Source: a virus (Duplodnaviria; Caudoviricetes). From it: DNA of 37,923 nucleotides. The position numbers and the translations under genes were made by a program. This document shows, one piece after another, positions 4,909-32,921 of the stretch; position 1 is the first letter of the stretch; each line of letters starts with the position of its first letter. Below the pieces are notes generated by a model that had not been told where the DNA came from, searched no databases, and saw only the letters and a list, made by a program, of their open reading frames with translations. The stretch is taken from IMG/VR virus record IMGVR_UViG_3300020045_003931, positions 1-37,923 of that record; one strand, given 5' to 3'.

Positions 4909-4981
4909 TTCGCCCCCTCCATCGCCTTAACGTGCCGCATCACCACAAGCAGCCAGAGATGGCGGATGTTTGTACGCATAT

Positions 4982-5086
4982 AAATGACCCCTTTGGGCAG
5001 TGCATCAGATTCGGGTAACGGGCGCGGAAGGGGTCCGCGTGGGACGAATCCCACCGAAAGTGACGCACTGCCCGAAAAAGTCATTT
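4982..5086 (-). ncRNA. C4/CI-like antisense RNA candidate upstream of the replication genes
   Basis: Long closing stem with two internal hairpins. Loop sequences CCCCTT and CCCGTTAC are complementary to flanking AAGGGG and GTAACGGG on the same transcript. Confidence 0.6.
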
Positions 5087-5191
5087 ATTCCCCTTCATGG
5101 TTCCCGTTACGGAACATTCAAAATAACAGAGCCGCGCCTATAGTTCAACTATAAGAACTTCCGCTGCAATAGATTTGCACTATTATGTACA

Positions 5192-5410: not shown

Positions 5411-5574
5411 CCCAGCCCCCTCCGAATAACCCGCACATGGGCGCGAATTGCCAGACGAGCCAGTGGATTTCTGCGGGCATGCCACAGCAGGCCGATGTAG
5501 ATTCGTGCCTGGTCGATCTTGCTCACGGGCTTGATGCAGGAGCCGTCGGTGTGCATGGAGGGCATGAGCTTCAT
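5407..5574 (-). CDS. Hypothetical protein
   Basis: Translationally coupled (ATGA overlaps) between its neighbours. Confidence 0.5.
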   Translation of the reverse strand: MKLMPSMHTDGSCIKPVSKIDQARIYIGLLWHARRNPLARLAIRAHVRVIRRGLG

Positions 5575-6002
5575 TCGGTCTCTTTCACGATCCACCTCGC
5601 CCCGCAAACCGACTTACACCACATCACCGGCTTGGCCTGAAGTCCTTGGGTTCCGGGATCGTCTCCGATTAGGAACGCCTGCATAATCGCATCGGTACAT
5701 TGCTCTTTGTTGAGATCGAGACTACTCCCCCCCAGCATGATTAGACCTGCATTCCCTTGGCCACGATCGATCCCCGGCATCAATCGCCACCCCAAGATGG
5801 TGCCGGATATCATATGGCGCCAATCATCTTTCGAGAGGCGGAAACCATGCCACTCTATCTGAGAGGCGAGGTCTCCGCAGGCCGCGTTGAGTAGGTTCCT
5901 TTGGTCTTGGGTCGAATACTCGTCAGCCCAGTTGCGGGCGTCTTTCCGACGGCCCATATCGTTTGAAATCATTCGGTTGTCGGTGTCCAATAATCTGTTC
6001 AC
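5571..6002 (-). CDS. ninB: NinB/Orf-family recombination protein
   Basis: STQDQRNLLNAACGDLASQIEWHGFRLSKDDWRHM...MPGID...MLGGSSLDL pattern. Confidence 0.75.
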   Translation of the reverse strand: MNRLLDTDNRMISNDMGRRKDARNWADEYSTQDQRNLLNAACGDLASQIEWHGFRLSKDDWRHMISGTILGWRLMPGIDRGQGNAGLIMLGGSSLDLNKEQCTDAIMQAFLIGDDPGTQGLQAKPVMWCKSVCGARWIVKETE

Positions 6003-6014
6003 TGTCGATTTTGG

Positions 6015-6033
6015 GGTCTACTTCACGTTATGT
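6015..6033 (+). other. attI-like (array-head) recombination site of the left array
   Basis: GGTCTAC-TTCAC-G|TTATGT: core site with 5-bp spacer and no full attC hairpin. It is at the 5' end of the array in attC orientation and shares GTCTACTT with 17105-17112. Confidence 0.55.
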
Positions 6034-6272
6034 GTCAGCCGTGCATCCGGGTCCGCTCCAAGAATCGCCCGAACCCGCGCAACAAAATCCGCCTTCGTTT
6101 CTCCGTTATACGTCACCACGTCTTGCAGTGCGCGAATCGTTGCAGCCAGTGCGTCGGCGCGGCGCTTCTGTTGCCGTGCCTCAATCCGGTATGCCGTACC
6201 CTCACACTGCCGGCCGCATGTGTCGCCATCGAAAGCGGCATTGCGCTCAGTTTTTTGAAAGTTGTTCTCCAT
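6018..6272 (-). CDS. Cassette L1 hypothetical protein
   Basis: ORF fills the interval between the attI-like site and the first attC; ends THNVK inside the site. Confidence 0.65.
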   Translation of the reverse strand: MENNFQKTERNAAFDGDTCGRQCEGTAYRIEARQQKRRADALAATIRALQDVVTYNGETKADFVARVRAILGADPDARLTHNVK

Positions 6273-6276
6273 TGAC

Positions 6277-6335
6277 GGCTAACAAGTCATTCCACCGGAC
6301 GGCCTTCGGCCGCGCGGTGAATTCCGGCGTTATGC
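6277..6335 (+). repeat. attC site (59 bp)
   Basis: GGCTAAC-AAGTC-ATTCCACC...GGTGAAT-TCCGGC-GTTATGC; extra C in L''. Confidence 0.9.
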
Positions 6336-6542
6336 GTAGCCATTGAACTGCACCGGGGCATCTCCGCCGCGCGCCGCTTTGATCGCGTCAGAAAGCCCGC
6401 CTTTCGGCTTTTCCGGTGGCCTGAGCCATCCCCCGTTAATTTGGTCCGCCAATTCTTGCGCCGCCGCTTCGGTCATGCCTGGGTAGCGAAGGTGGTATTC
6501 CTCACGGCCGTTGTGAATGCACTTACAAACATGGATGCTCAT
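6330..6542 (-). CDS. Cassette L2 hypothetical protein
   Basis: MSIHVCKCIHNGREEYHLRYPG...; stop TAA is supplied by the core site. Confidence 0.7.
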   Translation of the reverse strand: MSIHVCKCIHNGREEYHLRYPGMTEAAAQELADQINGGWLRPPEKPKGGLSDAIKAARGGDAPVQFNGYA

Positions 6543-6566
6543 TTCTTTTTCTCTCAGTGGTAACCG

Positions 6567-6656
6567 GCCTAACAAGCCGGTCAACCTGACGCCCGGAAGC
6601 GGGGCGCGCGCTCTTCAACCTCTCCTGCGCGGGCGCAGGTTACCTACCTGTTAGCC
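6567..6656 (+). repeat. attC site (90 bp)
   Basis: GCCTAAC-AAGCC-GGTCAACC-TGACGCCCG...CGGGCGCA-GGTTACC-TACCT-GTTAGCC. Confidence 0.9.
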
Positions 6657-6947
6657 GGCATTGATCTTCAGCGCCGCAGCGTCTTGTCCGTCGAAATAGC
6701 CGTGGGTGTAGGCGTCCCCTTCTTCCTCCGTGGCGTAGGTGTCGGTGTCTGCCGGTAGGGCATCGGCCAGCATGTACTTCACCATCGCCCGCGCTTGCTC
6801 GGCGTGCAGTAGGTTTGTGCCGCTCGGCATCCCCCATTTCTCTCCGTATTCACGGTCAAACGCTATCCCGGCGTCAGGCGCAAAGTCCTTCGGCAGTTTC
6901 CATCCAAGGAAGCGATCTACCATCTTGTCAATCATCGTTTTGCTCAT
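6651..6947 (-). CDS. Cassette L3 conserved phage hypothetical protein
   Basis: MVDRFLGWKLPKDFAPDAGIAF...GTNLL motif; RBS GGAG; stop inside the core site. Confidence 0.75.
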   Translation of the reverse strand: MSKTMIDKMVDRFLGWKLPKDFAPDAGIAFDREYGEKWGMPSGTNLLHAEQARAMVKYMLADALPADTDTYATEEEGDAYTHGYFDGQDAAALKINAG

Positions 6948-6966
6948 GTCATTCTCCGTAGTAGGT

Positions 6967-6988
6967 GCCGGCTAACTCAGCGTTATGC
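6967..6988 (+). repeat. Collapsed/truncated attC
   Basis: GCCGGCTAAC-TCAGC-GTTATGC; the first 10 nt are the exact complement of the cassette start GTTAGCCGGC (6650-6659). Confidence 0.65.
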
Positions 6989-7411
6989 CTCATGGCCGCC
7001 GAGCATTCCGGGGATGCCGCAGCGCCCATGCAAGGAATTGCCGCGTGATTGTTGGGCGCGGTCAGGAACAGCCGTACTACCAGCGCCGACTTTTGGCGGT
7101 TTCGGCATGGGCATCCATTGCGCAGCCGCCATCTTCTGGTTGCTGTGCCAGAAAATTCCACCAATCCAAGCGCCATGAACAACCTTCCCGTCGCGAACGA
7201 ACAACACTTCTTGCGCCTCCTGCGGCAGTTCTTCGGCAACATCGCGCCATCGCGGCGCCTCTGCAAGTCGTTCAAGCAGGTCGGCGTGTATCTTTTCGTG
7301 GTAGTTGCACAGCTTTGCAAGCTCGTCGCGCTGGGCCGTTACTGCGGCGAGTTCTTTGCTGTGCCGCTCTTGTATTTCGGCGCAAATACGCTGGTGTGTT
7401 GCCGGGTTCAC
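6983..7411 (-). CDS. DUF551-like phage protein
   Basis: RWRDVAEELP...EVLF...QWMPMPKPP motif. Confidence 0.7.
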   Translation of the reverse strand: MNPATHQRICAEIQERHSKELAAVTAQRDELAKLCNYHEKIHADLLERLAEAPRWRDVAEELPQEAQEVLFVRDGKVVHGAWIGGIFWHSNQKMAAAQWMPMPKPPKVGAGSTAVPDRAQQSRGNSLHGRCGIPGMLGGHEA

Positions 7412-7587
7412 TTTGGTTCCTTTGCTCGATTTATCTTGCAGCGTACCCATTCGGCACCGCCAAGCCGCGCCAGCTTTTCCCGCTGCGCCGCCGTCACACG
7501 CAGGGAGAGCGTTACCGTGTCCTCCCCCTGTTTCACTGGCTTGCGACCCTGGCCCCTTCCGGGGCCGCCTCGCTTCGTTTTAATCAC
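7408..7587 (-). CDS. Small DNA-binding protein (RGG/GRKP motif plus ribbon-helix-helix-like), not in ORF track
   Basis: Manual translation MIKTKRGGPGRGQGRKPVKQGEDTVTLSLRVTAAQREKLARLGGAEWVR..., coupled on both sides. Confidence 0.7.
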   Translation of the reverse strand: MIKTKRGGPGRGQGRKPVKQGEDTVTLSLRVTAAQREKLARLGGAEWVRCKINRAKEPK

Positions 7588-7733
7588 AAATCCACCAAGT
7601 TTTCACGGGTCAGCTTCGCGCCCTTTCCTCCCTCAAGAGTGGCCAGCCCTTTTACTTCTTCCGCTATCGCTACGGCCCACATTGCATCGTGCTCTTGCTT
7701 TGCTTCATCGATCATTTTTTGCAGCGCGTTCAT
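7584..7733 (-). CDS. Small hypothetical protein (49 aa), not in ORF track
   Basis: MNALQKMIDEAKQEHDAMWAV...; RBS AGGAG after the promoter. Confidence 0.6.
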   Translation of the reverse strand: MNALQKMIDEAKQEHDAMWAVAIAEEVKGLATLEGGKGAKLTRENLVDL

Positions 7734-7765
7734 TTTGCTTCTCCTTGTGCGTTGTTGATGTTGTT

Positions 7766-7793
7766 ATTGTAATGCGTAATCAAACAATGTCAA
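7766..7793 (-). promoter_or_regulatory. sigma70-type promoter inside cassette L4
   Basis: TTGACA, 16 bp spacer, TACAAT on the minus strand, followed by AAGGAGAAGCAAAATG. Confidence 0.7.
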
Positions 7794-8050
7794 GTCTTTT
7801 CTATCATCACCACAACGCCCATTCCTGAGCGGTATTCATAATCATCGCTAAACCTTTCTCGCCATGCGTCAAGCTCATCACGCAATGCCGCGTTTTCATT
7901 TTGCAGTGCTGCGTTATGTTCCATCCGCATGTACTTAACAGATAAGGTCATCCCTGCGAATTGCTTGGAATAATGTAGGCAATCTGATGAAACAACCGCC
8001 TTGCAAACCGGGCAGTAATACCCAGCTTTAATGCAAACATCGGCCTTCAT
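7790..8050 (-). CDS. Hypothetical protein
   Basis: Coupled ORF with CxxC and a coiled-coil segment. Confidence 0.6.
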   Translation of the reverse strand: MKADVCIKAGYYCPVCKAVVSSDCLHYSKQFAGMTLSVKYMRMEHNAALQNENAALRDELDAWRERFSDDYEYRSGMGVVVMIEKT

Positions 8051-8493
8051 GACTTCTCCCTCAGCACCATTTCGTCAAGCCTAGTCTGGGCCGGATCTTC
8101 TTCAGGCTTCATGCACTCCCCGCATTCGTGGTCGCTGCATAAGCAATCGCCAACCTGAACCATCCGCACATCTTTAGGTAACCGCATGCCCCAAAGGCGG
8201 TTCTGTGCCAAATCAGCATCTTCATCCGTTGCTTTGCGCATACCGGTCGCCACGTCTTCCGGCAGCGGCTTGGTTACGTCACCGCTTAGAACCCGGTTCA
8301 ACGTGTGCCTTGCGCGGCTTTGCGCCCACATCACGAATTCGTAAGGCGATCTCCGCACGTCAGGGTCAAAATCCCGCCACTCTGCTGTGGCGATGTTCTC
8401 CAGTTCTTCGCAAAGTGCATCCACCTGCCGCTTGAGTTCTTCAATTTCCTCGTCTCGTGGTTTCAGCATTTCTTCAACCAGTTTCGGGTTCAT
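8047..8493 (-). CDS. Hypothetical protein
   Basis: Coupled ORF with a coiled-coil N-terminus. Confidence 0.65.
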   Translation of the reverse strand: MNPKLVEEMLKPRDEEIEELKRQVDALCEELENIATAEWRDFDPDVRRSPYEFVMWAQSRARHTLNRVLSGDVTKPLPEDVATGMRKATDEDADLAQNRLWGMRLPKDVRMVQVGDCLCSDHECGECMKPEEDPAQTRLDEMVLREKS

Positions 8494-8756
8494 ATCGCCC
8501 CCATCGGAGAGTAGTTGCGGTAAATTTTTACTTCATCCAAACAGCCTACACATGGGCCTACCGTTACCGTCGCCGCGTGTTTGCAAGATGAGCATTCCCC
8601 CGTGTCTTCCTCTCCTCCAATTAGAAATTCCATTGCCGCACATCCTTCGTGCCATAGGTCAAGATCCACGACCATCACCGCGCCGTCGTCGCCTTCCATT
8701 TCCTCACTGTTGTGGAATAGCTTGGCCAGCGAGTTAAGTGCTTCGTCTTTGTCCAT
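8490..8756 (-). CDS. Hypothetical protein
   Basis: RBS AAAGGA; Cys-rich C-terminus. Confidence 0.65.
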   Translation of the reverse strand: MDKDEALNSLAKLFHNSEEMEGDDGAVMVVDLDLWHEGCAAMEFLIGGEEDTGECSSCKHAATVTVGPCVGCLDEVKIYRNYSPMGAI

Positions 8757-8781
8757 TTCCGTTCCTTTCGTTATCGTTAAT

Positions 8782-8849
8782 GCATAACACGTCGCTCAAC
8801 ACGGACGCAGGCGATAAAGCCGCCTGCGCCGGTTAGCTAGGCGTTGGGC
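8782..8849 (+). repeat. attC site (68 bp)
   Basis: GCATAAC-ACGTC-GCTCAAC...GGACGCAGGCG-loop-CGCCTGCGCC-GGTTAGC-TAGGC-GTTGGGC. Confidence 0.9.
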
Positions 8850-10735: not shown

Positions 10736-10841
10736 AACGCCCAAATATGCTTTGCAGGGCGGGCCTTTGGCGAAGGCAGTCGGCGCTTGCTAGAGGACAG
10801 CATTCCAACCACTTCCGCCCTGCAAAATCTACTTGGGCGTT
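10736..10841 (-). ncRNA. Second C4/CI-like antisense RNA candidate upstream of the recombination genes
   Basis: Closing stem AACGCCCAA...TTTGCAGGGCGG / CCGCCCTGCAAA...TTGGGCGTT. Internal TCCTCTAG and GCCAAA are complementary to flanking CTAGAGGA and TTTGGC. Confidence 0.6.
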
Positions 10842-11398: not shown

Positions 11399-11622
11399 CC
11401 CGGGCTATTCATCCTGCCGCCCGGGGAAGGCAGGACGGCTTACCCGTCAGCATCCCGGTGGCTCGGGCGGCGCAATCACCAGAGAAGCGGTCTGGCGAAT
11501 TTGGTGGGTTACTTTGTTTCCCTGTCGTTTCCCTGGTGAGCCCATGCCTTGACATGCGCAGGTACGGGGGCGTCTAGGGGCACGTTTCGCCCGTTGATCG
11601 GTACTGCAAATTCCTACTGATC

Positions 11623-11736
11623 TGGTGATGCTTTAGTAAGCGGAGGCCAAATAAAACGCCCGGTGGCCAACCGATCCCTCTTGTATCCGGGCGGTTCGGT
11701 GCTGCCGAACCCCTCTAATTTGGTGATGCTTTAGTA
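11623..11736. repeat. 16-bp direct repeat flanking hairpins in the leftward leader
   Basis: TGGTGATGCTTTAGTA at 11623-11638 and 11721-11736. Confidence 0.8.
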
Positions 11737-11843
11737 CGCCTACCGGGTGATTCAGCTAGCGCGGCGTGTCGGCGGTGCCATTGACGCATTGATAACTGAC
11801 GGTTCCCATCGGCTTGCGGCATTCACTTGTTGCTGCAAGTGAC

Positions 11844-11907
11844 CAAACTATAAACAAAATATTTTGCTAATGCAATAGACAAAACAAAATATTTTGTTTA
11901 TAGTTTG
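11844..11907. promoter_or_regulatory. Back-to-back divergent early promoters with palindromic operators
   Basis: Perfect 23-bp inverted repeat (11844-11866 / 11885-11907). Right promoter TAGACA-17-TATAGT, left promoter TTGCAT-17-TATAGT, with CAAAATATTTTG in each spacer. Confidence 0.85.
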
Positions 11908-11928
11908 CCCATCGAACAAGGGGGCACC

Positions 11929-12123
11929 ATGAACATAGAACAACTGGTTAAACGATACGGCGACGACAACGTAGCCATTGGGCGGGAGATTTGCTACACG
12001 CCGCAATCAATCCGCAACTGGCGCAGGAAAGGCAAAATCCCGATGGTTGCGCAAAGAACCATTGAGGCGATTACTGGCGGGGCGCTGAAGGCTGACAAGA
12101 AACCTAAGAGGGTGCGGGCATGA
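11929..12123 (+). CDS. Cro-like HTH regulator
   Basis: AIGREICYTPQSIRNWRRKGKIP...IEAITGGALKAD; first gene after the rightward promoter. Confidence 0.8.
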   Translation: MNIEQLVKRYGDDNVAIGREICYTPQSIRNWRRKGKIPMVAQRTIEAITGGALKADKKPKRVRA

Positions 12124-12206: not shown

Positions 12207-12812
12207 ATGGCTGATGAATACATGATTCGCACGGTGACGGACTTCGCCGGGATACCAGAGGACAAACTGCTCGAATGCCTGAGTGACTTTATGCAGTTCC
12301 TGGCGATGGTTCGCCACTCGGCGAAGTTTGACCAAGAAATGCAAATGGCCTTTGAACTGCCGGAAGGCTCGCTGAATCTCGACACTGACGTTTTCCATTG
12401 GATAGACGACGGACGCCGCGAATGCTCGGCGCTGGATTTTGTAGCGAAGGAAACCGGCGAGACGGTGGGGCGGATGGACTTGCCCTCCAACGCACGAGTT
12501 CAGGCCGACGCCGAGAGCTTGGCCGGCGACCGCGCTGCGGAAGACGCGAGAGACATTGCGGAGGCCCATGAGCGGAAAACCATCACGGCAGTCGAACGTG
12601 TTCGAGAACTTGACGCCGGGATCGAACTGCTGCGCGAGGCCGTCATCAGTCGGCGCGAATGCCACAAGGCGTACAGCGAAATTACAGGCACCATCGCGGG
12701 ACGAGTCCCGACGCGAGAGGAACGAGATAAAGAGGTAGCGCTTCGTTCGGCGATTGGGATGGCTGAACGCGCGGTCATGGATGCGGCGGAATATCTGACG
12801 CCCAACGACTGA
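12207..12812 (+). CDS. Cassette hypothetical protein (probable fusion of two cassettes)
   Basis: Internal half-attC at 12482-12510 is read as LPSNARVQAD; ends TPND inside the attC. Confidence 0.7.
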   Translation: MADEYMIRTVTDFAGIPEDKLLECLSDFMQFLAMVRHSAKFDQEMQMAFELPEGSLNLDTDVFHWIDDGRRECSALDFVAKETGETVGRMDLPSNARVQADAESLAGDRAAEDARDIAEAHERKTITAVERVRELDAGIELLREAVISRRECHKAYSEITGTIAGRVPTREERDKEVALRSAIGMAERAVMDAAEYLTPND

Positions 12813-12866
12813 ATTGAGGCGACTGCGCGGCTTCTTGCGCAGTTCGCCTCGAATGATGGGTTCGGC
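12800..12866 (-). repeat. attC site (67 bp)
   Basis: Minus strand: GCCGAAC-CCATC-ATTCGAGG...CCTCAAT-TCAGTC-GTTGGGC. Confidence 0.9.
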
Positions 12867-12892
12867 GGCAACCTGTAAGCATTACTTACCAG

Positions 12893-13210
12893 TTGGATGA
12901 ATTGAAAATGCCAATTGAACCACACGAAGAAACAGAAGCAATCGACAGGCTGTTCTTGGAGTTGTCGCAATTCACAAAGGCAAAGACCAAGCGCGATTTG
13001 CAGCTTGACGCGCTAATCATGGCCGTGGAGCGCAAGTTCCCCGGAGAGACGCGCTTTGAAACGGCTCTGCGGTACATACGGGAAGCAGAGTCTACAAGCT
13101 CTGTGGCAACGGCAGCAGTGACGCCCAACGTTGAAGTTCAGGGGCGTGCCGGCATTATCGGCACGTCCGCTGGAACGACGGGTTCGACCACACGGGAGCC
13201 AACAGAGTGA
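12893..13210 (+). CDS. Cassette hypothetical protein
   Basis: AIDRLFLELSQFTKAKT...FPGETRFETALRYI; reads through the whole attC 13123-13188. Confidence 0.7.
   Translation: MDELKMPIEPHEETEAIDRLFLELSQFTKAKTKRDLQLDALIMAVERKFPGETRFETALRYIREAESTSSVATAAVTPNVEVQGRAGIIGTSAGTTGSTTREPTE
13123..13188 (-). repeat. attC site (66 bp)
   Basis: Minus strand: GTCGAAC-CCGTC-GTTCCAGC...CCTGAAC-TTCAAC-GTTGGGC. Confidence 0.9.
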
Positions 13211-13716
13211 GCCTGAGCGGACACCAAAGCGCGGCGATGAAAAACGACGAGTGGCTGACGCCGCCCGAGATCCTGCGCACCCTCGGGGCGTTCGATCTTG
13301 ACCCGTGTGCGCCAATAGTCAGGCCGTGGGAGACGGCGGCCCAGCACTACACGGCGCAAGACGACGGGCTGGCCCTGCCTTGGTTTGGGCGCGTTTGGTG
13401 CAACCCGCCATTCGGGCGTGAGGCAGTGAAGTGGCTGCGGAAGATGCGCGACCACGGAAACGGGGTGGCCTTGATCCCGGCGCGCACCGAGACGGCGATG
13501 TTTTACGAAACAGTGTGGGGAGCGGCAGACGGCGTGCTGTTCCTCAAAGGGCGCCCGCACTTCCACTACGTTTGCGGACGGCGGGCGGATTTCAACAGCG
13601 GCGCACCCATTGCCTTGGTGGCCTACGGAAGCGACAACCTGGAAGCACTCAGGCATAGCGGCCTCGGGTTCGTGGTAGTGGGGTCGAACGCCGGAATTCA
13701 CCGCGCGGCCGAATGA
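13207..13716 (+). CDS. Phage DNA N6-adenine methyltransferase (phage Dam family) cassette
   Basis: DEWLTPP, FDLDPCA, catalytic VWCNPPF, LIPARTET. Confidence 0.9.
   Translation: MSLSGHQSAAMKNDEWLTPPEILRTLGAFDLDPCAPIVRPWETAAQHYTAQDDGLALPWFGRVWCNPPFGREAVKWLRKMRDHGNGVALIPARTETAMFYETVWGAADGVLFLKGRPHFHYVCGRRADFNSGAPIALVAYGSDNLEALRHSGLGFVVVGSNAGIHRAAE
13683..13713 (-). repeat. Half attC (L'-R' arm only)
   Basis: 27 nt identical (inverted) to 6305-6331; the other arm is absent. Confidence 0.8.
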
Positions 13717-13796
13717 ACGAAGGCTACCTGCTCGACGTGAGCGACCGGATGTACTGGGACAACGTGTGCGCGAGCCTGAGCCAAAGTGATTGAAGG

Positions 13797-13860
13797 GGCT
13801 AACGCATGAAATCAGGGGCAGGCCGCTTTTGGCCTGTCCCGCTGGATTGACGGGTTAGGG
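13797..13860 (-). repeat. attC site (64 bp)
   Basis: Plus strand: GGCTAAC-GCATGA-AATCAGG-GGCAGGCC...GGCCTGTCCC-GCTGGATT-GACGG-GTTAGGG. Confidence 0.88.
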
Positions 13861-13868
13861 GGAGACAA

Positions 13869-14123
13869 ATGAAAGAGATTGTTGGCGCGAAAATCGGGAC
13901 ACTGATTACTAACAACCGGAGAACCATTTCCGAGGCGGTGGAGCGAAACGCGGTCACGGAATTCCTTGACCGCAAACACATGCAGTTTATGGCCGCGATG
14001 GACTTGGGGCGAAATTGGGAACTGATGGCGAGCGGGCCGACTTTGTTTTGCATAGATGACAACGGGAAACCGCAGCCCCATAACGTAGAGCTAACCGGCG
14101 CTGCGCGCCACGGACAGGAGTAG
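13869..14123 (+). CDS. Cassette hypothetical protein
   Basis: RBS GGGGGAG overlaps the core site; ends HNVELTGAARHGQE inside the next attC. Confidence 0.7.
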   Translation: MKEIVGAKIGTLITNNRRTISEAVERNAVTEFLDRKHMQFMAAMDLGRNWELMASGPTLFCIDDNGKPQPHNVELTGAARHGQE

Positions 14124-14200
14124 ATGCGATGACGACCGAGACACCACAAACGACAGCGACTCCCGCTGGCGCAGCGTCCGAGTTGAGCGCAGGGTTAGAT
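14078..14200 (-). repeat. attC site (123 bp) with stop codon, RBS and start codon in its loop
   Basis: Plus strand: CCATAAC-GTAGA-GCTAACC-GGCGCTGCGC...GCGCAGCGTCCG-AGTTGAGC-GCAGG-GTTAGAT. Confidence 0.88.
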
Positions 14201-14428
14201 GGTCTTGCGAAATCGGCTGGATTCAAGCGGACGAAAATGCACAAATCTCTTCGACGGTTTGCTGAGCTAGTTGCAGCCGCAGAACGCGAGGCGTGCGCCA
14301 AGGTTTGCGATAAGCGGGTGATGTACCCGGATGGATGCGATGTTGCAAAAACGTGCGCCATTGAGATACGTGAGCGCTCTAACGCAAAGGTAACCGGCGC
14401 TCAACAGCGCGCACCGGAAGCCGAGTAA
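14129..14428 (+). CDS. Cassette hypothetical protein
   Basis: LRRFAELVAAAEREACAKVC...CAIEIRER motif common in phages; starts and ends inside attC loops. Confidence 0.75.
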   Translation: MTTETPQTTATPAGAASELSAGLDGLAKSAGFKRTKMHKSLRRFAELVAAAEREACAKVCDKRVMYPDGCDVAKTCAIEIRERSNAKVTGAQQRAPEAE

Positions 14429-14479
14429 ACCACTGCGGACGCGCGCTGTTGAGCGTCCGCGTTCACCGCCGGGTTAGCC
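14377..14479 (-). repeat. attC site (103 bp)
   Basis: Plus strand: CTCTAAC...GGTAACC-GGCGCTCAACAGCGCG...CGCGCTGTTGAGCGTCC-GCGTTCACC-GCCGG-GTTAGCC. Confidence 0.9.
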
Positions 14480-14499
14480 GGCAGATCGGAGAGGGCGCA

Positions 14500-14850
14500 A
14501 TGGACAGGGACGACGACCTGCACAATTACCTCAGAACGCAGTTCAGCGACTTCGAATGGGCAAAGGCCTTCATGTGGCGATGGGTGAATGAGATGGACCA
14601 AGAACTGCCGGGATTTGGGTTGATTAGCTCGCGGTCTTTGGCTGCGCATTGCAGCGCCGTACTTGAGAACGCGCAGGTCCAGATGATTGGCTCGACCACG
14701 AACTATATGGCGAGCAAATACGGGAGCGAACTGTACTGGGCCGCGTGGGGCGACCCGCCGGCTAACGTAGAGTTCAGCGGGACTCCGGCGGCATCATCGC
14801 CGGAGGCTCCGCTGGAACGCCGGGTTGGGCCTAGCGCACAAGAGGAATGA
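14500..14850 (+). CDS. Cassette hypothetical protein
   Basis: RBS GGAGAGGG; reads through attC 14760-14830. Confidence 0.7.
   Translation: MDRDDDLHNYLRTQFSDFEWAKAFMWRWVNEMDQELPGFGLISSRSLAAHCSAVLENAQVQMIGSTTNYMASKYGSELYWAAWGDPPANVEFSGTPAASSPEAPLERRVGPSAQEE
14760..14830 (-). repeat. attC site (71 bp)
   Basis: Plus strand: GGCTAAC-GTAGA-GTTCAGC-GGGACTCCGGCG...CGCCGGAGGCTCC-GCTGGAAC-GCCGG-GTTGGGC. Confidence 0.9.
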
Positions 14851-14853
14851 GAA

Positions 14854-15111
14854 ATGGACAAAGAAATAGCGGCGTGGCGTGAGCGGTTCCCTCGGTACGA
14901 ATACCGACCGCAGGACGAATGTGTGGCGCTGAAGTTTGAATGCGCATACGGATGCCACTGCGACCTTGACCCCGGCATGACGCCTGACAAGTGCGTGCTT
15001 GACGAGGGGCGCTCATTTGATTGCACGAAGGCTCAGCAACTACTCCGCGATGGGAAGGGGCGCAACGATTGCGACGATTGGAAGCCAATTGTCGAGAGGC
15101 CCAACGTGTGA
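14854..15111 (+). CDS. Cassette Cys-rich hypothetical protein
   Basis: YGCHCDL...CVLD...C...CDDW; ends RPNV. Confidence 0.7.
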   Translation: MDKEIAAWRERFPRYEYRPQDECVALKFECAYGCHCDLDPGMTPDKCVLDEGRSFDCTKAQQLLRDGKGRNDCDDWKPIVERPNV

Positions 15112-15156
15112 CTTCAGGGGCGCCGGAACGGCGTCCCTTGCAAGGATGGGTTCGGC
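15099..15156 (-). repeat. attC site (58 bp)
   Basis: Plus strand: GCCCAAC-GTGTGA-CTTCAGG-GGCGCC...GGCGTCC-CTTGCAAG-GATGG-GTTCGGC. Confidence 0.82.
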
Positions 15157-15192
15157 GTCTTGCCGGAGCCGACTTTTGAAGGGAACGAGGAC

Positions 15193-15423
15193 ATGAAACT
15201 GTTTGTGTGGTGCGATCCGTATCAAGTGACTTACGGCTCCGCGATGGTGTTTGCTGTCGCGGCGACCGAGACTGCGGCCAAGAAGCAAGCTGCAAAAGGA
15301 CTGGCGTACAAGTACGGGAAATATAGGCAAGACGGAAGCATGGCTGATTTGGCTGGCAGACTCGGGAAGCCTGACCGCGTTGTCGACCTGCCGTGCGCCG
15401 AGTGGCATGAGTGGTCGGAATGA
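15193..15423 (+). CDS. Cassette hypothetical protein
   Basis: RBS GAGG; MKLFVW...FAVAATETAAKK. Confidence 0.7.
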   Translation: MKLFVWCDPYQVTYGSAMVFAVAATETAAKKQAAKGLAYKYGKYRQDGSMADLAGRLGKPDRVVDLPCAEWHEWSE

Positions 15424-15427
15424 AGAC

Positions 15428-15497
15428 GCCGAACGCCGAGTGAAGGGGCGATGCGCGGCCTTATCGCGCAGCGTCCCGCTTGCATGCCGGGTTATGT
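15428..15497 (-). repeat. attC site (70 bp)
   Basis: Plus strand: GCCGAAC...GTGAAGG-GGCGATGCGCG...CGCGCAGCGTCC-CGCTTGCAT-GCCGG-GTTATGT. Confidence 0.82.
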
Positions 15498-15513
15498 TTC
15501 ACGAAGGAAGAGA

Positions 15514-16056
15514 ATGGACAACTTGCAAGAAAAACCAAGCAACGCCACTTTTGCCGGCAGGCGGGTTTTAGACCCGTGCTGCGGCAGCCGGATGATGTGG
15601 TTTGACCGGAAACACCCTGACGCCGTGTTCGGTGACAAGCGCACCGAGCAGCACACGCTTTGCGATGGACGGACGCTGCGCATTGAGCCTGACATGCAGA
15701 TGGATTTCACGGCCCTGCCGTTTGACGACGGCGCGTTCCGGCTTGTGGTGTTCGATCCTCCGCACTTGCACACCGCCGGCCCGAAAAGTTGGATGGCAGC
15801 GAAGTACGGAAAGCTTACCGGAGACTGGAGCGAAGACTTGCGCAAGGGGTTTGCCGAATGTTTCCGCGTGCTGGCCAGCGACGGTGTTCTGATTTTCAAA
15901 TGGAACGAAACACAGGTGAAGATTCGTGAAGTGCTGGCGCTGACGCCCGAGCAACCGCTATTCGGACACCCGACCGGACGCAAAGGGCTGACCCACTGGT
16001 ACGTGTTCATGAAACATAACGCAGAAATAACCGGCCGCGCCAGCGGTCCGGGTTGA
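15514..16056 (+). CDS. SAM-dependent (probable DNA amino-) methyltransferase cassette
   Basis: VLDPCCGSRM SAM-binding motif, VVFDPPH catalytic-type motif, GVLIFKWNE. Confidence 0.85.
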   Translation: MDNLQEKPSNATFAGRRVLDPCCGSRMMWFDRKHPDAVFGDKRTEQHTLCDGRTLRIEPDMQMDFTALPFDDGAFRLVVFDPPHLHTAGPKSWMAAKYGKLTGDWSEDLRKGFAECFRVLASDGVLIFKWNETQVKIREVLALTPEQPLFGHPTGRKGLTHWYVFMKHNAEITGRASGPG

Positions 16057-16070
16057 TTGACGGGTTAGGA
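16014..16070 (-). repeat. attC site (57 bp)
   Basis: Plus strand: ACATAAC-GCAGA-AATAACC-GGCCGC...GCGGTCCG-GGTTGATT-GACGG-GTTAGGA. Confidence 0.9.
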
Positions 16071-16076
16071 AACGAC

Positions 16077-16283
16077 ATGAGCGTAAGAGTAAAGACACTG
16101 GACAAAGCTGTGGCAGAAGCCAAGCGGTTTTTGGAAGCGGCAGACGTTGTGAAACGGTGCGCTGGAAGCGCCGAATACACCAAAGGCGATCCTTGGTACT
16201 GCGGCGGCCAGCATTGTGCAGCAGCGAAGCGGGCAAGTATGGATTTGTCGAAGGCGCTGGCCGATGTGCGGCGCGGTTCCTAA
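16077..16283 (+). CDS. Cassette hypothetical protein
   Basis: AVAEAKRFL...AAAKRASMDLSKALADVRR; stop TAA inside the core site. Confidence 0.75.
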   Translation: MSVRVKTLDKAVAEAKRFLEAADVVKRCAGSAEYTKGDPWYCGGQHCAAAKRASMDLSKALADVRRGS

Positions 16284-16348
16284 CGACCCGAATTCAGGGG
16301 CCGCACGCGGCCCTATCGCGGGCGGTCCCCTGGAATGAGTTGTTAGGG
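16278..16348 (-). repeat. attC site (71 bp)
   Basis: Plus strand: TCCTAAC...ATTCAGG-GGCCGC...GCGGTCC-CCTGGAAT-GAGTT-GTTAGGG. Confidence 0.9.
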
Positions 16349-16356
16349 GCCAACGC

Positions 16357-16869
16357 ATGGCGACCACCAAGACAAGTTGCCCACAGTGCGGCGCTGCGTT
16401 TGAAGCGGAAACCGGGAGGATGAACCGGGCGCTGAAGATCGGAGCACCACTGTACTGCGGCCGCGCATGCGCAGGACTGGCGCGACGACTGACAAGCCCG
16501 CCAACGGAAGCAGAGCGGAAAGAGGCAAAGCGACTTTATGACGCGCGGCGACGAGTTGAGAAGGAGGAAGAAATCAAGGCCAAGAAGCGCGACTACTTCA
16601 AGCGCACCTATGACCCAGCCAAGGCTGCGGCTGAACGCAAGGAAAGGATGCCAAGGCACGTTGAATACTGCCGGAGGCCGGAATACAAGGCTTGGAAGCG
16701 CGAGTACGACAGGCGCCACTTGGCCGAGAAGAAGTTTGGCGAGTTCGCCGAAGTAGCACTGTTGTTGCAGGACATAGAGCGGGAGGTTGAGCAGCGCGCT
16801 ACGCGCTACGAGATATACCGCACCAATGGAACACTCAATAAAGCGCAAACGCGCAGGAGATCATTATGA
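16357..16869 (+). CDS. Cassette hypothetical protein, Zn-finger-like and basic
   Basis: CPQC...YCGRAC; very Arg/Lys-rich. Confidence 0.75.
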   Translation: MATTKTSCPQCGAAFEAETGRMNRALKIGAPLYCGRACAGLARRLTSPPTEAERKEAKRLYDARRRVEKEEEIKAKKRDYFKRTYDPAKAAAERKERMPRHVEYCRRPEYKAWKREYDRRHLAEKKFGEFAEVALLLQDIEREVEQRATRYEIYRTNGTLNKAQTRRRSL

Positions 16870-17084
16870 CCACGATTACCAAGGAACTGAACGCCACCAA
16901 CCTGAAAAACGCCCTTTGGGAGACGCTCCAAGACATCAAGGCCGGCACGGTTCAACCCGGCCAAGGTGACGCCATCGCATCCCAGGCGCGGGAGATTCTG
17001 CGCACGGTGAAGGTGCAGCTTCAGGTGACGAACCAGTCGAAACGCAGCGTGCCGGCTGACGTGATCCAGTTCGCGGAGAAGTGA
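16866..17084 (+). CDS. Second gene of the two-gene cassette, hypothetical
   Basis: ATGA-coupled to the previous gene. Confidence 0.75.
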   Translation: MTTITKELNATNLKNALWETLQDIKAGTVQPGQGDAIASQAREILRTVKVQLQVTNQSKRSVPADVIQFAEK

Positions 17085-17094
17085 AGAACATGGC

Positions 17095-17113
17095 CCCTAA
17101 CACTAAGTAGACG
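17095..17113 (-). other. attI-like (array-head) site of the right array
   Basis: Minus strand: CGTCTAC-TTAGT-G|TTAGGG; no R'' box upstream; same GTCTACTT as the left terminus. Confidence 0.55.
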
Positions 17114-17132
17114 TACCGTGCAAGGTAGGCAA

Positions 17133-25763: not shown

Positions 25764-26995
25764 TACCAGTTGCTCACGGTAGGTTTTTGGTCTGATTCTG
25801 GCTTCTGCGTTCCAGAACCGGAGCCTGATTTTTTGACGGCATTTTTCCAGTTCTCGTAATGCGTCTTTACCGCCTTCAGGTTCTTGATCTGCTGAGCTTC
25901 GCTTTGACCAACGTCAAGCGATGCAAGAACAGATTGCAAAAAGTCCAATTCTCGAACGGCCACCTGTCCAAGGGCGCCTCCAGTAGGCGAAGACTCGCGC
26001 ATGGCCTGCAATTCTTGAAATCCGATATTCGCTTTGATCGTGTCGATTGTGCGGTCAAGATCGTAGGCATTCGTGCCCGGTACGTTGCTCAGCGCCTTGC
26101 CGGTAAAGCCGGAGGTGAGGAATCCTGTCCCTTTCAGCGCTTCGTCTACTTTTCCAATCACGATTTCAGCCTTATTGACGCCGCTTTCCAGTTGCTTTTC
26201 CCGCTTTACAGCCTCAGCGCCGGATTTTGCGTCTGCGGGTCCGCCTGGAATGGCTTCCAGCGCTCCATCGGCTTTTTGTCGGTATCCTGGCGGAATCTTC
26301 CCTTGTGCCTGGGTTTCCCGCGCACGAGCATCGGCCATATCCTGCCCGCGGCGAGCAGTTTTGGCGGATAGCAGGGCGTCAGGTGTGGCGACCTTCTGGA
26401 AGGCTTGCCCTTGACTGAATTGCCCCGTCAGAGGATCGACCGATCCAGTGACCACCGAGCCGCCTTGATCAAAATGCTGAAACTTGGGTAAATACTCATT
26501 GGCTTTGAGCTTGTGCCCTACGGCCCACTTCCTGATTTTCTCCGGATCGCCCTGCATTTTGTCGATACTGTCCAAGTCTGCGGCGACATCTGCTCCGGTC
26601 GTTTGGGAAAATTTCGCCAATGCCGATTTAGCGTTTTCCGGAGTTGGGTTGACCATGACGTGACTAGAAAGCCCATCCATCAGTTCCAAGGCCGTCTTTG
26701 CCTGCGTCAGCTTCGCCGTCCGCTGCTCCTGCTGCATCTTCGACAGTTCCATTCCCAGCTTGGGGTTGATCCGCGATACCTGCTGGGTATAGTCCGGCGC
26801 AGCCGAATTGAGCCCGCGCAGGGCGTTCCTGTCGGACTGTTCCTGTTGTGCGTTTTGGAGTTGAAGATCTGCAAGCTTGTTTGCCCGCAACGCCTGAGTA
26901 TCTGCAAGAGCATTTTGTTGCCCTTGATAGAAGCTGTTCGCCACCTTCCCAGGCATTGATGGATCGATGATGCCCCAGTTGATTTCGCCAGCCAT
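25763..26995 (-). CDS. DNA ejection (internal virion) protein
   Basis: Gln/Ala-rich; SPTGGALGQVAVRE motif; gp20-like position. Confidence 0.7.
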   Translation of the reverse strand: MAGEINWGIIDPSMPGKVANSFYQGQQNALADTQALRANKLADLQLQNAQQEQSDRNALRGLNSAAPDYTQQVSRINPKLGMELSKMQQEQRTAKLTQAKTALELMDGLSSHVMVNPTPENAKSALAKFSQTTGADVAADLDSIDKMQGDPEKIRKWAVGHKLKANEYLPKFQHFDQGGSVVTGSVDPLTGQFSQGQAFQKVATPDALLSAKTARRGQDMADARARETQAQGKIPPGYRQKADGALEAIPGGPADAKSGAEAVKREKQLESGVNKAEIVIGKVDEALKGTGFLTSGFTGKALSNVPGTNAYDLDRTIDTIKANIGFQELQAMRESSPTGGALGQVAVRELDFLQSVLASLDVGQSEAQQIKNLKAVKTHYENWKNAVKKSGSGSGTQKPESDQKPTVSNW

Positions 26996-31603: not shown

Positions 31604-32320
31604 TTATCCCGTAGTCCCCGAGAAAATATTGAAGCGCCCGATGCGCCCCACCATCGACGACGGAATCGCCATTACATCGCCCGGATTGTTGATCCGCTTG
31701 ATGTCCCGCTTCGAGGCCATTGCAAGGCGTTGCACGGTCGGAGGCGGCTCTACGCCAAACTCGGCCGCGATCTCGCACGCCAGGTTGAACTTGAACGCGC
31801 GACGATAGCCAGGAGGTAGCACAAGGCTGGTGGCCAGTACCGCCGGTTGGCTAAGTTCCGTTACGCTGACGAAATGGAATTCCAGATCCTTCGTCGGCAC
31901 GGGATAGACCTTCATGGTCGCGTCCGGCACGTCCATGTTGACCCACAGCAGCTTTGGGTAGGTGCTGGTGACCGTTTTCAGGGCAATGCCGTTGTATTGC
32001 TGCTGGTTAATGAGCATCAGACCAAACGACAGGCCCGAATCTGTATCCCTGAAATAGGTAGATGCGTCGAGCTCAACTGGTCGATTGCCGACAAAATCAC
32101 CCGTCGGCCCGATGGTACGGGATGCCGTATTCGCCGGCCAGGTAAAAACCTGATCCTGCGTAGAGAAAACCGCCAGCCGTTCGATTGACCAGCTATCAAG
32201 CATCGTATTCAGCGCTTCGAGCGCGTCCGCAGACGTTTCAGCAGACGGCGTTTCACCCTCGGCAAGCTGGCCGATTAGCCGAAGTGCTGCGTTGATTTCG
32301 TCACCGGCACTAGTTGACAT
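31604..32320 (-). CDS. Head-to-tail adaptor (P22 gp4-like)
   Basis: ALRLIGQLAEGETP...DALEALNTMLDSW; FNLACEIAAEFG. Confidence 0.8.
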   Translation of the reverse strand: MSTSAGDEINAALRLIGQLAEGETPSAETSADALEALNTMLDSWSIERLAVFSTQDQVFTWPANTASRTIGPTGDFVGNRPVELDASTYFRDTDSGLSFGLMLINQQQYNGIALKTVTSTYPKLLWVNMDVPDATMKVYPVPTKDLEFHFVSVTELSQPAVLATSLVLPPGYRRAFKFNLACEIAAEFGVEPPPTVQRLAMASKRDIKRINNPGDVMAIPSSMVGRIGRFNIFSGTTG

Positions 32321-32921
32321 TTGACCCCTCGCTGAGTTGCTTTCGTTGTTCCCACGTTTTTTTCATTCGTTCAGATATTTTCGCCCGCTCCTCTAGGCTA
32401 TATTCCCTTCCAGCAGCCCGCTTGTTTCCCATCAGCGACATAGAAATCTTGGCTTTCGAAGCATCTGAAAGTCTTTTGCCTTTCCCAATTTCTGATAACA
32501 ATTTCCTTTGCTCTTCCTTTATCACGCATCCCTTTTTTGCTGCTGAAATATTCGCGCAATGCTCTGCTGAAAATCTGCGCCCCTTGTGCGCCGCACTCAT
32601 TTTTTCTTTCGTCTCTTCGGTATGACGTGTTCCGAATGGGGAATGTGCTACAGGCCGTCCGTTATAAGTTGGCTTGAAAAAATCTATCCAAAACTGCTCT
32701 CGCTCTATAAGCTTCGACTTGTCTTCCACAAGCTGAATTATTTCACAATTGAAAATATCTAATCCATATTTATTAACTGCGTTTTGTAACTTGGGGCTAT
32801 GGTGAGTCCCACGCTTAAGCGCATATTTGTGCCCCTTCCATCTGCGCCTCACAGAAATAGCCGATCCGACATACATATCTTTGGTTATGCTATTCACTAT
32901 TGCGTAAATAGCGGTAGCCAT
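32310..32921 (-). CDS. Free-standing GIY-YIG homing endonuclease with NUMOD3 repeats
   Basis: AIYAIVN...MYVGS, RWKGH, EREQFWI, HTEETKEKMS / SAEHCANIS repeats; AT-rich relative to flanks. Confidence 0.9.
   Translation of the reverse strand: MATAIYAIVNSITKDMYVGSAISVRRRWKGHKYALKRGTHHSPKLQNAVNKYGLDIFNCEIIQLVEDKSKLIEREQFWIDFFKPTYNGRPVAHSPFGTRHTEETKEKMSAAHKGRRFSAEHCANISAAKKGCVIKEEQRKLLSEIGKGKRLSDASKAKISMSLMGNKRAAGREYSLEERAKISERMKKTWEQRKQLSEGSNVN

Follow-up and report, generated by a model that had tools for sequence, protein, structure and literature searches.

Integrons are viewed as bacterial tools and, lately, as stores of anti-phage genes. Clusters of attC sites without an intI gene (CALINs; at least two attC sites) also occur on phages, and 17 phage CALINs, often with DNA methyltransferase cassettes, have been described (Qi et al., 2023; PMC9892861). 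IntI1 recombines phage attC sites with attI1 (PMC9892861). The main text of that paper names no dedicated insertion site for the phage clusters, suggests illegitimate or homologous capture, and places attI copies only on elements that bear intI (a cryptic prophage); in a Shewanella prophage, attI lies ahead of both the integron and the CALIN.

Other insertion sites are also relevant to comparison. In the available text of PMC8946536 and PMC3146285, attI1 consists of a simple site with the upstream accessory elements DR1 and DR2, and the former, as far as it is accessible, treats attI specificity and accessory factors as an open point for chromosomal integrons. IntI also inserts outside the integron, with a G/TT crossover, at attG sites, which in the available part of 10.1101/2022.09.11.507474 have a 3-base consensus and no conserved platform. 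Shortened attI pieces (Delta-attI cassettes) travel within arrays and recombine, and the accessible portion of PMC12901181 reports them from class 1 and 2 mobile integrons, not from phage array heads.

The window analysed here, 37,923 bases long, is a whole virus record whose head, tail, replication and lysis genes are P22-like. It resembles the phage CALINs in holding attC clusters without intI, and two of its cassettes code for DNA methyltransferases. Unlike those CALINs, it has array heads of types that are conserved across phage records and precede varying first cassettes, and its cassette ORFs are antisense. Judged from the DNA, the two motifs at these heads are very probably attI-type sites of the phage's two attC arrays and, as the phage has no integron integrase, are likely used by a host IntI in trans. 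The left head has the same L box, spacer and R box as the attI of sedentary betaproteobacterial integrons; unlike that attI, neither head adjoins an intI gene, and the right head has an extra box that was found in none of 112 intI-upstream regions. In combining a simple site with an upstream element the right head is like attI1 in the sources above, but its box, which is tied to a separate small gene, is palindromic instead of being a direct repeat of the core. Both heads recall attG in that IntI would insert outside an integron, at G/TT, but they differ from it, so far as its available description goes, in a platform conserved over 20-62 bp. Integrase-free phage attI heads, the box and the P0001 family were found described neither in the literature searched, which covered few subscription journals, nor in the available parts of 10.1101/2022.09.11.507474, PMC8352920, PMC8618304, PMC8946536, PMC3146285 and PMC12901181.

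Layout of the Two Cassette Arrays

A search of all 37,923 bases gave no IntI-family match over the cut-off, and the same holds for all 35 related viral records; 7 of these are at least 90% complete, and in the others, mostly fragments, an integrase could have escaped notice. The window is thus a CALIN, by our own structural scan and not by IntegronFinder, and neither it nor any of the 35 records is a complete integron. No Rfam family matched anywhere in the window, and no cultured phage covering the head region was found. The attC sites lie on the + strand in the left array (6277-8849) and on the - strand in the right array (Table 1). They were called by the structural scan together with a chain rule, by which the first bases of a cassette are complementary to R'' of its own attC; the first right attC was found by the chain rule, having been missed by the structural scan.

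The array ORFs are antisense to the attC sites and point outwards from the centre towards the heads. A GC-skew switch lies near 11 kb, and the arrays would be transcribed outwards from the central region. A consensus scan found four sigma-70-like sites in the window and none at either head, thus no cassette promoter upstream of these attI-type sites; antisense cassettes would be in line with outward phage transcription, so that the site would need no such promoter. A near-consensus sigma-70 promoter-like site was seen within the long fourth left cassette (7766-7793, -). A stretch of 27 nt (6305-6331), the right half of the first left attC, is a perfect inverted copy of 13687-13713, the half attC that precedes the Dam cassette; this suggests an exchange between the left and right arrays.

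Table 1. Features of the window at and between the two array heads.
Feature	Position	Strand	Details
ninB-like gene adjoining left head	5571..6002	-	PHROG 72, Pfam NinB
Left head, host-type attI	6007..6033	+	T-rich run, L box 6015-6021, 5-bp spacer, R box 6027-6033
ORF of first left cassette	6018..6272	-	84 aa, without family; antisense to attC; stop codon within L box
attC 1, left array	6277..6335	+	structural scan
attC 2, left array	6567..6656	+	structural scan
attC with internal deletion, left array	6970..6988	+	R'' joined to R' by 5 nt; chain match 7/7 and 11/12 to core at 6650
Last attC, left array	8782..8849	+	structural scan; chain match 7/7 to core at 6982
Central region	11844..12123		23-bp perfect inverted repeat, rightward promoter-like site, cro-like gene
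Right-array attC sites	12800..16348 (span)	-	16348-16278, 16070-16014, 15497-15428, 15156-15099, 14830-14760, 14479-14377
Right-array attC sites, continued		-	14200-14078, 13860-13797, 13188-13123, 12866-12800; half site near 13713-13683
Dam-family methyltransferase cassette ORF	13207..13716	+	85% identity over 446 nt to a cassette of the G428 chromosomal integron
Second DNA methyltransferase cassette ORF	15451..16056	+	PHROG 954
First right cassette	16284..17100	-	two ORFs on +; intact by complementarity of right-head R box and R'' of first right attC (7/7 and 11/12 positions)
Right head, simple site	17095..17113	-	L box, 5-bp spacer, R box
Near-palindromic 12-bp box	17115..17126	-	ACCTTGCA-N-GGT type, 24 bp before core G
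P0001 gene	17133..17441	+	102 aa, without known family; divergent from right site, in the place of intI in integrons

A Shared Motif at Both Array Heads

The initial annotation had read a motif shared by the two heads as a pair of phage-borne attI mimics. The 19-mers at 6015-6033 (+) and 17113-17095 (-) are present exactly where it had placed them, and the 37,923 bases contain exactly two copies of GTCTACTT-N3-GTT, one per array head; the bare 8-mer occurs once more, at 26144 (+), without GTT. Among all pairs of GTT sites in the window, 164 of 598,965 (2.7e-4) have a common in-register 8-mer in the 20 nt upstream. Both heads have the geometry of an attI simple site (L box, 5-bp spacer, R box, G/TT crossover), with crossovers that would fall at 6027/6028 on the left and 17101/17100 on the right. 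Each stands at the 5' head of a cassette array, as attI does, and neither is an attC hairpin.

The attI reading itself has gained ground, given a right site that stays fixed while first cassettes vary and a left site that tops a profile of intI-adjacent sites. The two heads diverge upstream of the shared 8-mer, a difference that had been overlooked: although both are attI-type, they are of two kinds, the left one host-type and the right one a member of a family marked by a box plus a small gene. The palindromic box is absent at the left head.

The Left Head as a Host-Type attI

A host attI profile was built from 38 heads upstream of true intI genes in the family and order of G037 (Burkholderiales), leaving out 6 head calls that were implausible or were ends of attC sites, together with 16 loci where no head was called. 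Under this profile the left head ranks first of the 1095 GTT sites in the window at lengths 12, 20 and 24, and the right head ranks 4, 22 and 9, respectively. The last 11 bases before the core of the left head equal the profile consensus, its likeness to host attI fades about 20 bp upstream, and its 14-mer also adjoins intI in two loci (L337 and L362). Comparison with intI-adjacent attI in candidate hosts, which the initial annotation had proposed, thus yields a match for the left head, and among 59 loci from the betaproteobacterial order of G037, 11 have the motif in the 420 nt upstream of intI. The corresponding counts are 2/20 in the order of Rudaea, 0/19 in that of Pseudomonas and 0/14 in that of Thalassotalea. 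The further idea that the motif may identify the cognate host IntI survives in part: it narrows the candidates to beta/xantho-type integrons, but because it adjoins intI in several loci of two orders, it is a common attI site of that type and cannot single out one integrase.

On phages, the exact left 14-mer was found at no fewer than 122 viral loci, 102 of them distinct and 65 with 600 nt downstream. Among the matches listed, it heads a chained attC array in 7 of these 65 distinct loci, hence at least seven phage arrays, and none of the seven has intI in the locus. In one record (G731, 52% complete), two identical 62-bp left-type copies head arrays that converge and lie about 10.5 kb apart; their first cassettes differ, and the record gave no integrase match. 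A fixed left-type site with a changing first cassette has therefore been seen in other phage records, not at the window's own site; no close relative of the window was found, and variable insertion at its own left site is unsupported, which counts against the proposed explanation. Another record (G011) is laid out like the window, with a host-type head beside ninB and one box-type head. In L555, a host-type site lies upstream of the same gene that is preceded by box-type sites in L407, L417 and L426, so the two kinds look interchangeable.

Searches starting from neighbouring genes returned little. The motif was found upstream of none of 16 ninB relatives; SSB and Erf queries returned one and two loci, where the motif stood at no array head; and a pattern made from two ninB-side heads returned eight loci, namely three copies of the G011 site and five without a chained attC. 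By sequence reading, the R box of the left head is complementary to R'' of the first left attC at 4/7 positions only, and given this match the first left cassette may be a hybrid.

The motif, in a 12-base form, is not enriched in 201 host genomes, with 21 matches there and about 60 (a hand count) for the reversed control. Five of the 21 have the spacer of the window and two lie beside intI. Of the 19 others, none ends an attC, and six stand at the start of a chained array whose fetched surroundings contain no intI. Loci L388-L405 are attI-headed cassette arrays in host genomes, again without intI in the fetched DNA; other repeats lie upstream of some of them, and attI arrays of this solo kind may be common. 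A second GTT lies 30 nt ahead of the left core in the window (5997-6026), and in L462, near 6086 (-), a host-type attI forms a 30-nt unit directly after an attC inside a phage array. Such 30-nt units may mark how short attI pieces travel, or they may be due to chance.

The Right Head and Its Palindromic Box

The right-head family was assembled from 35 loci on viral contigs, 80 kept from 207 metagenome loci, and the window; from these 116 loci, 14 duplicates and 3 with the start off the contig were removed, leaving 99. At 93 of the 99 distinct loci (window included), the box, L box and G/TT core lie upstream of the P0001-family gene and face away from it. Two of the six others end at a contig edge, one has a changed core and one has no site; in L074 the site lies beyond an inserted HNH-like gene, and a short contig is likewise. 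An HNH-like gene between the small gene and its site was also seen in L061.

Downstream of this site the DNA varies: the 30-mers after the core take 91 different forms at the 93 sites, and seven groups of loci that are identical over 45 nt upstream have different first cassettes. With 500 nt downstream available in 70 loci, an attC was called in 66, and the head R box equals R'' of the first attC at 7/7 positions in 43 of 65 loci (window excluded), whereas 2000 permutations gave 5.5 on average and never more than 14. The fixed site, the changing first cassettes and the matching of head to attC together indicate that the right family behaves as attI. Conservation at array heads, proposed earlier as a check in related phages, is found across phage records for both kinds of head. 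The distance from box to crossover is 24-25 bp, and about 25 bp are conserved in about 80 distinct platforms; the site finder took distances of 24, 25 or 28 only, and the fixed-distance result comes from a looser search over 24-29. No IntI-like tblastn hit was obtained at any locus of the family.

Conversely, a search with the pattern of the site returned 38 distinct viral loci. The gene is present in 24 of them, an attC is chained to the site in 24, and 18 have both, leaving 6 of 24 chained box sites without the small gene nearby. Five of these gene-less records were searched, and the sole complete one has a partial gene copy elsewhere. The small gene and the box site are strongly linked, yet separable. 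In bacterial genomes the box pattern occurs at 120 loci or more, five beside the small gene and one chained without it, and no IntI was found near bacterial box loci among the matches listed (40 of the 120 with 300-nt flanks only). A sigma-70 promoter was considered for the box and rejected, as there is no -10 element at 16-18 nt in either direction, by eye and by consensus scan.

A chromosomal-looking subfamily (L125-L138, L208 and L231) has two boxes about 20 bp apart and can be likened to DR1/DR2 of attI1 as described in the available parts of PMC8946536 and PMC3146285. Its cassettes are forward and include a toxin-antitoxin-like pair, and one of its loci (L130, 9850-10260) lies among bacterial metabolic genes. 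G037 carries a two-box platform and, separately from it, an intI gene with a host-type attI. In each of G016, G025 and G535, two box-type heads are found on a single phage record, and the second array head of G002, at 14607 (-), falls outside both the host profile and the box family.

The Small Protein P0001

P0001 has 445 relatives at E <= 0.001, which form 271 clusters at 50% identity, and belongs to no Pfam or PHROG family. Searches of 50,697 phage and 72,556 plasmid records found no match, and bacterial genomes seldom carry the family gene (2 of 301). The predicted structure has a long basic helix, then a four-stranded sheet and a helix (pLDDT 84.6). Foldseek gave no match at E <= 0.001, and fold comparison gave no clear match, with a best Z of 3.6 and a best Atlas value of 0.80. 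Pur-alpha and similar sheet-helix domains were considered and set aside, as their rows are weak (Z 3.0-3.2) and distrusted. From its position and its linkage to the site, P0001 can tentatively be seen as a helper of recombination.

Cassette Orientation and Gene Traffic

First cassettes are antisense to attC in 45 of 57 one-box (phage-type) loci, whereas 31 of 33 in host integrons run forward, as do 10 of 11 at two-box loci, with orientation judged by the longest ATG frame only and with metagenome contigs of unproven viral origin in the phage-type group. IntI is present in 117 of 201 genomes sampled from the family of G037 (the 201 of both the IntI and the motif tallies, the unpublished genome G091 among them) and in 108 of 301 from its order. 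One genome (G428) holds three intI genes, a phage-like contig with a box platform, and a chromosomal integron with several antisense cassettes, among them the relative of the window's Dam cassette listed in Table 1, both this content and the cassette match being dependent on binning. In the same genome, L455 (G428:C13) is a chromosomal integron that mixes antisense phage-type cassettes with forward ones.

Proposed Mechanism and Alternatives

In the mechanism that we favour, a host IntI made during infection or lysogeny would be supplied in trans and would join the folded bottom strand of an attC to the double-stranded phage site. The left head would be a shortened host attI captured by the phage, for which travel of the Delta-attI kind is, by analogy, a possible route. 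Antisense cassettes would be read from the phage's own outward promoters and added at the far end of each operon, and the box would be an accessory binding site, for IntI or perhaps for P0001, taking the part of DR1/DR2 in attI1. Against this mechanism, non-cognate integrases generally use attI sites poorly, according to the available text of PMC8946536, and the box-type site adjoins intI at none of 112 loci. A broader scheme, which is speculative and on balance doubtful, would have integrase-free phage integrons widespread, with host-type or phage-specific attI and a pool of antisense cassettes; P0001 would bind the box and recruit or license host IntI, and one lineage would have become chromosomal, with two boxes and forward cassettes.

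The initial annotation had itself raised the caveat that the heads could be decayed or truncated attC sites, of which the L'-spacer-R' half survives. The 7-5-7 geometry is indeed common to attC right halves, broken attCs occur at two places in the window (6970-6988 and about 13713-13683), and the left first cassette matches its head imperfectly. This reading has nevertheless been largely refuted already and is barely tenable: among 153 attC right ends of related arrays, none carries CTACTT-N3 before GTT and none reaches the attI-versus-attC score of either head. Neither head has the R''/L''/L'/R' inverted repeat or an attC-like fold of the bottom strand (z of 0.05 to 0.8, against -1.3 and -2.9 for two real attCs; 200 base shuffles). 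The genomic motif matches, as noted, end no attC, the right site is kept at nearly all loci, and in relatives a full attC was never seen at the right-head position. It is very improbable, too, that the heads are ordinary secondary sites of the attG kind, hit once and followed by cassettes that came via attC or phage recombination. IntI inserts at GWT sites across genomes (10.1101/2022.09.11.507474, available part), an array so begun would have a core without attC at its head, and the phage encodes Erf and an exonuclease; but a one-off site would not keep 25 bp and a fixed distance from box to core in about 80 platforms, would not match host attI, and would not exchange its first cassette on an identical platform.

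The heads might instead be attI relics, inactive on the phage, within blocks taken from host integrons, the box only serving the small gene as an operator or ribosome-binding signal. Host chromosomes do have attI-headed arrays without a nearby intI (the 6 of 19 matches above), the Shewanella prophage has captured attI copies (PMC9892861), and the box lies 0-15 nt from the start of the small gene and is ribosome-binding-site-like on that strand. This explanation is improbable, since the opposite orientations of first cassettes in host and phage-type loci indicate that the phage arrays are not copied host blocks, and since it is the spacing between box and crossover that is constant, not that between box and start codon; moreover, box and site remain together where an HNH-like gene intervenes (L074) or the small gene is absent. 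Next to no credence is given to insertion by a phage-encoded recombinase, or by the small protein itself, in place of host IntI. The small gene does occupy the place of intI, and phage integrases lie near some relatives, but the window has no integrase match, P0001 has only 102 aa and no recombinase family or fold match, and the cassettes carry standard attC sites, one of the cassettes being common to a complete host integron.

Implications

Use of these heads by host IntI would mean that phages can dock integron cassettes at attI sites of their own, so that phage mosaicism and the spread of cassettes would have a site-specific route, with DNA methyltransferase-type cassettes common to phage and host arrays. 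Some CALINs would then have an origin of this kind, keeping an insertion site, and would not be integrase-less leftovers. Array heads, which are overlooked by attC-based screens, carry host information. With about 80 natural variants of the site, plus a small protein, the box-plus-gene family lends itself to the study of attI specificity and accessory factors. P0001, if it acts as proposed, would be the first accessory protein dedicated to an integron recombination site.

Other Features of the Window

Two 44-nt direct repeats, 98 nt apart, lie near the central control region (11598-11739). Long inverted repeats without an Rfam match occur in intergenic DNA at 10736-10841 and 4980-5088. A homing-endonuclease-like gene is found amid the head and connector genes (32310-32921).
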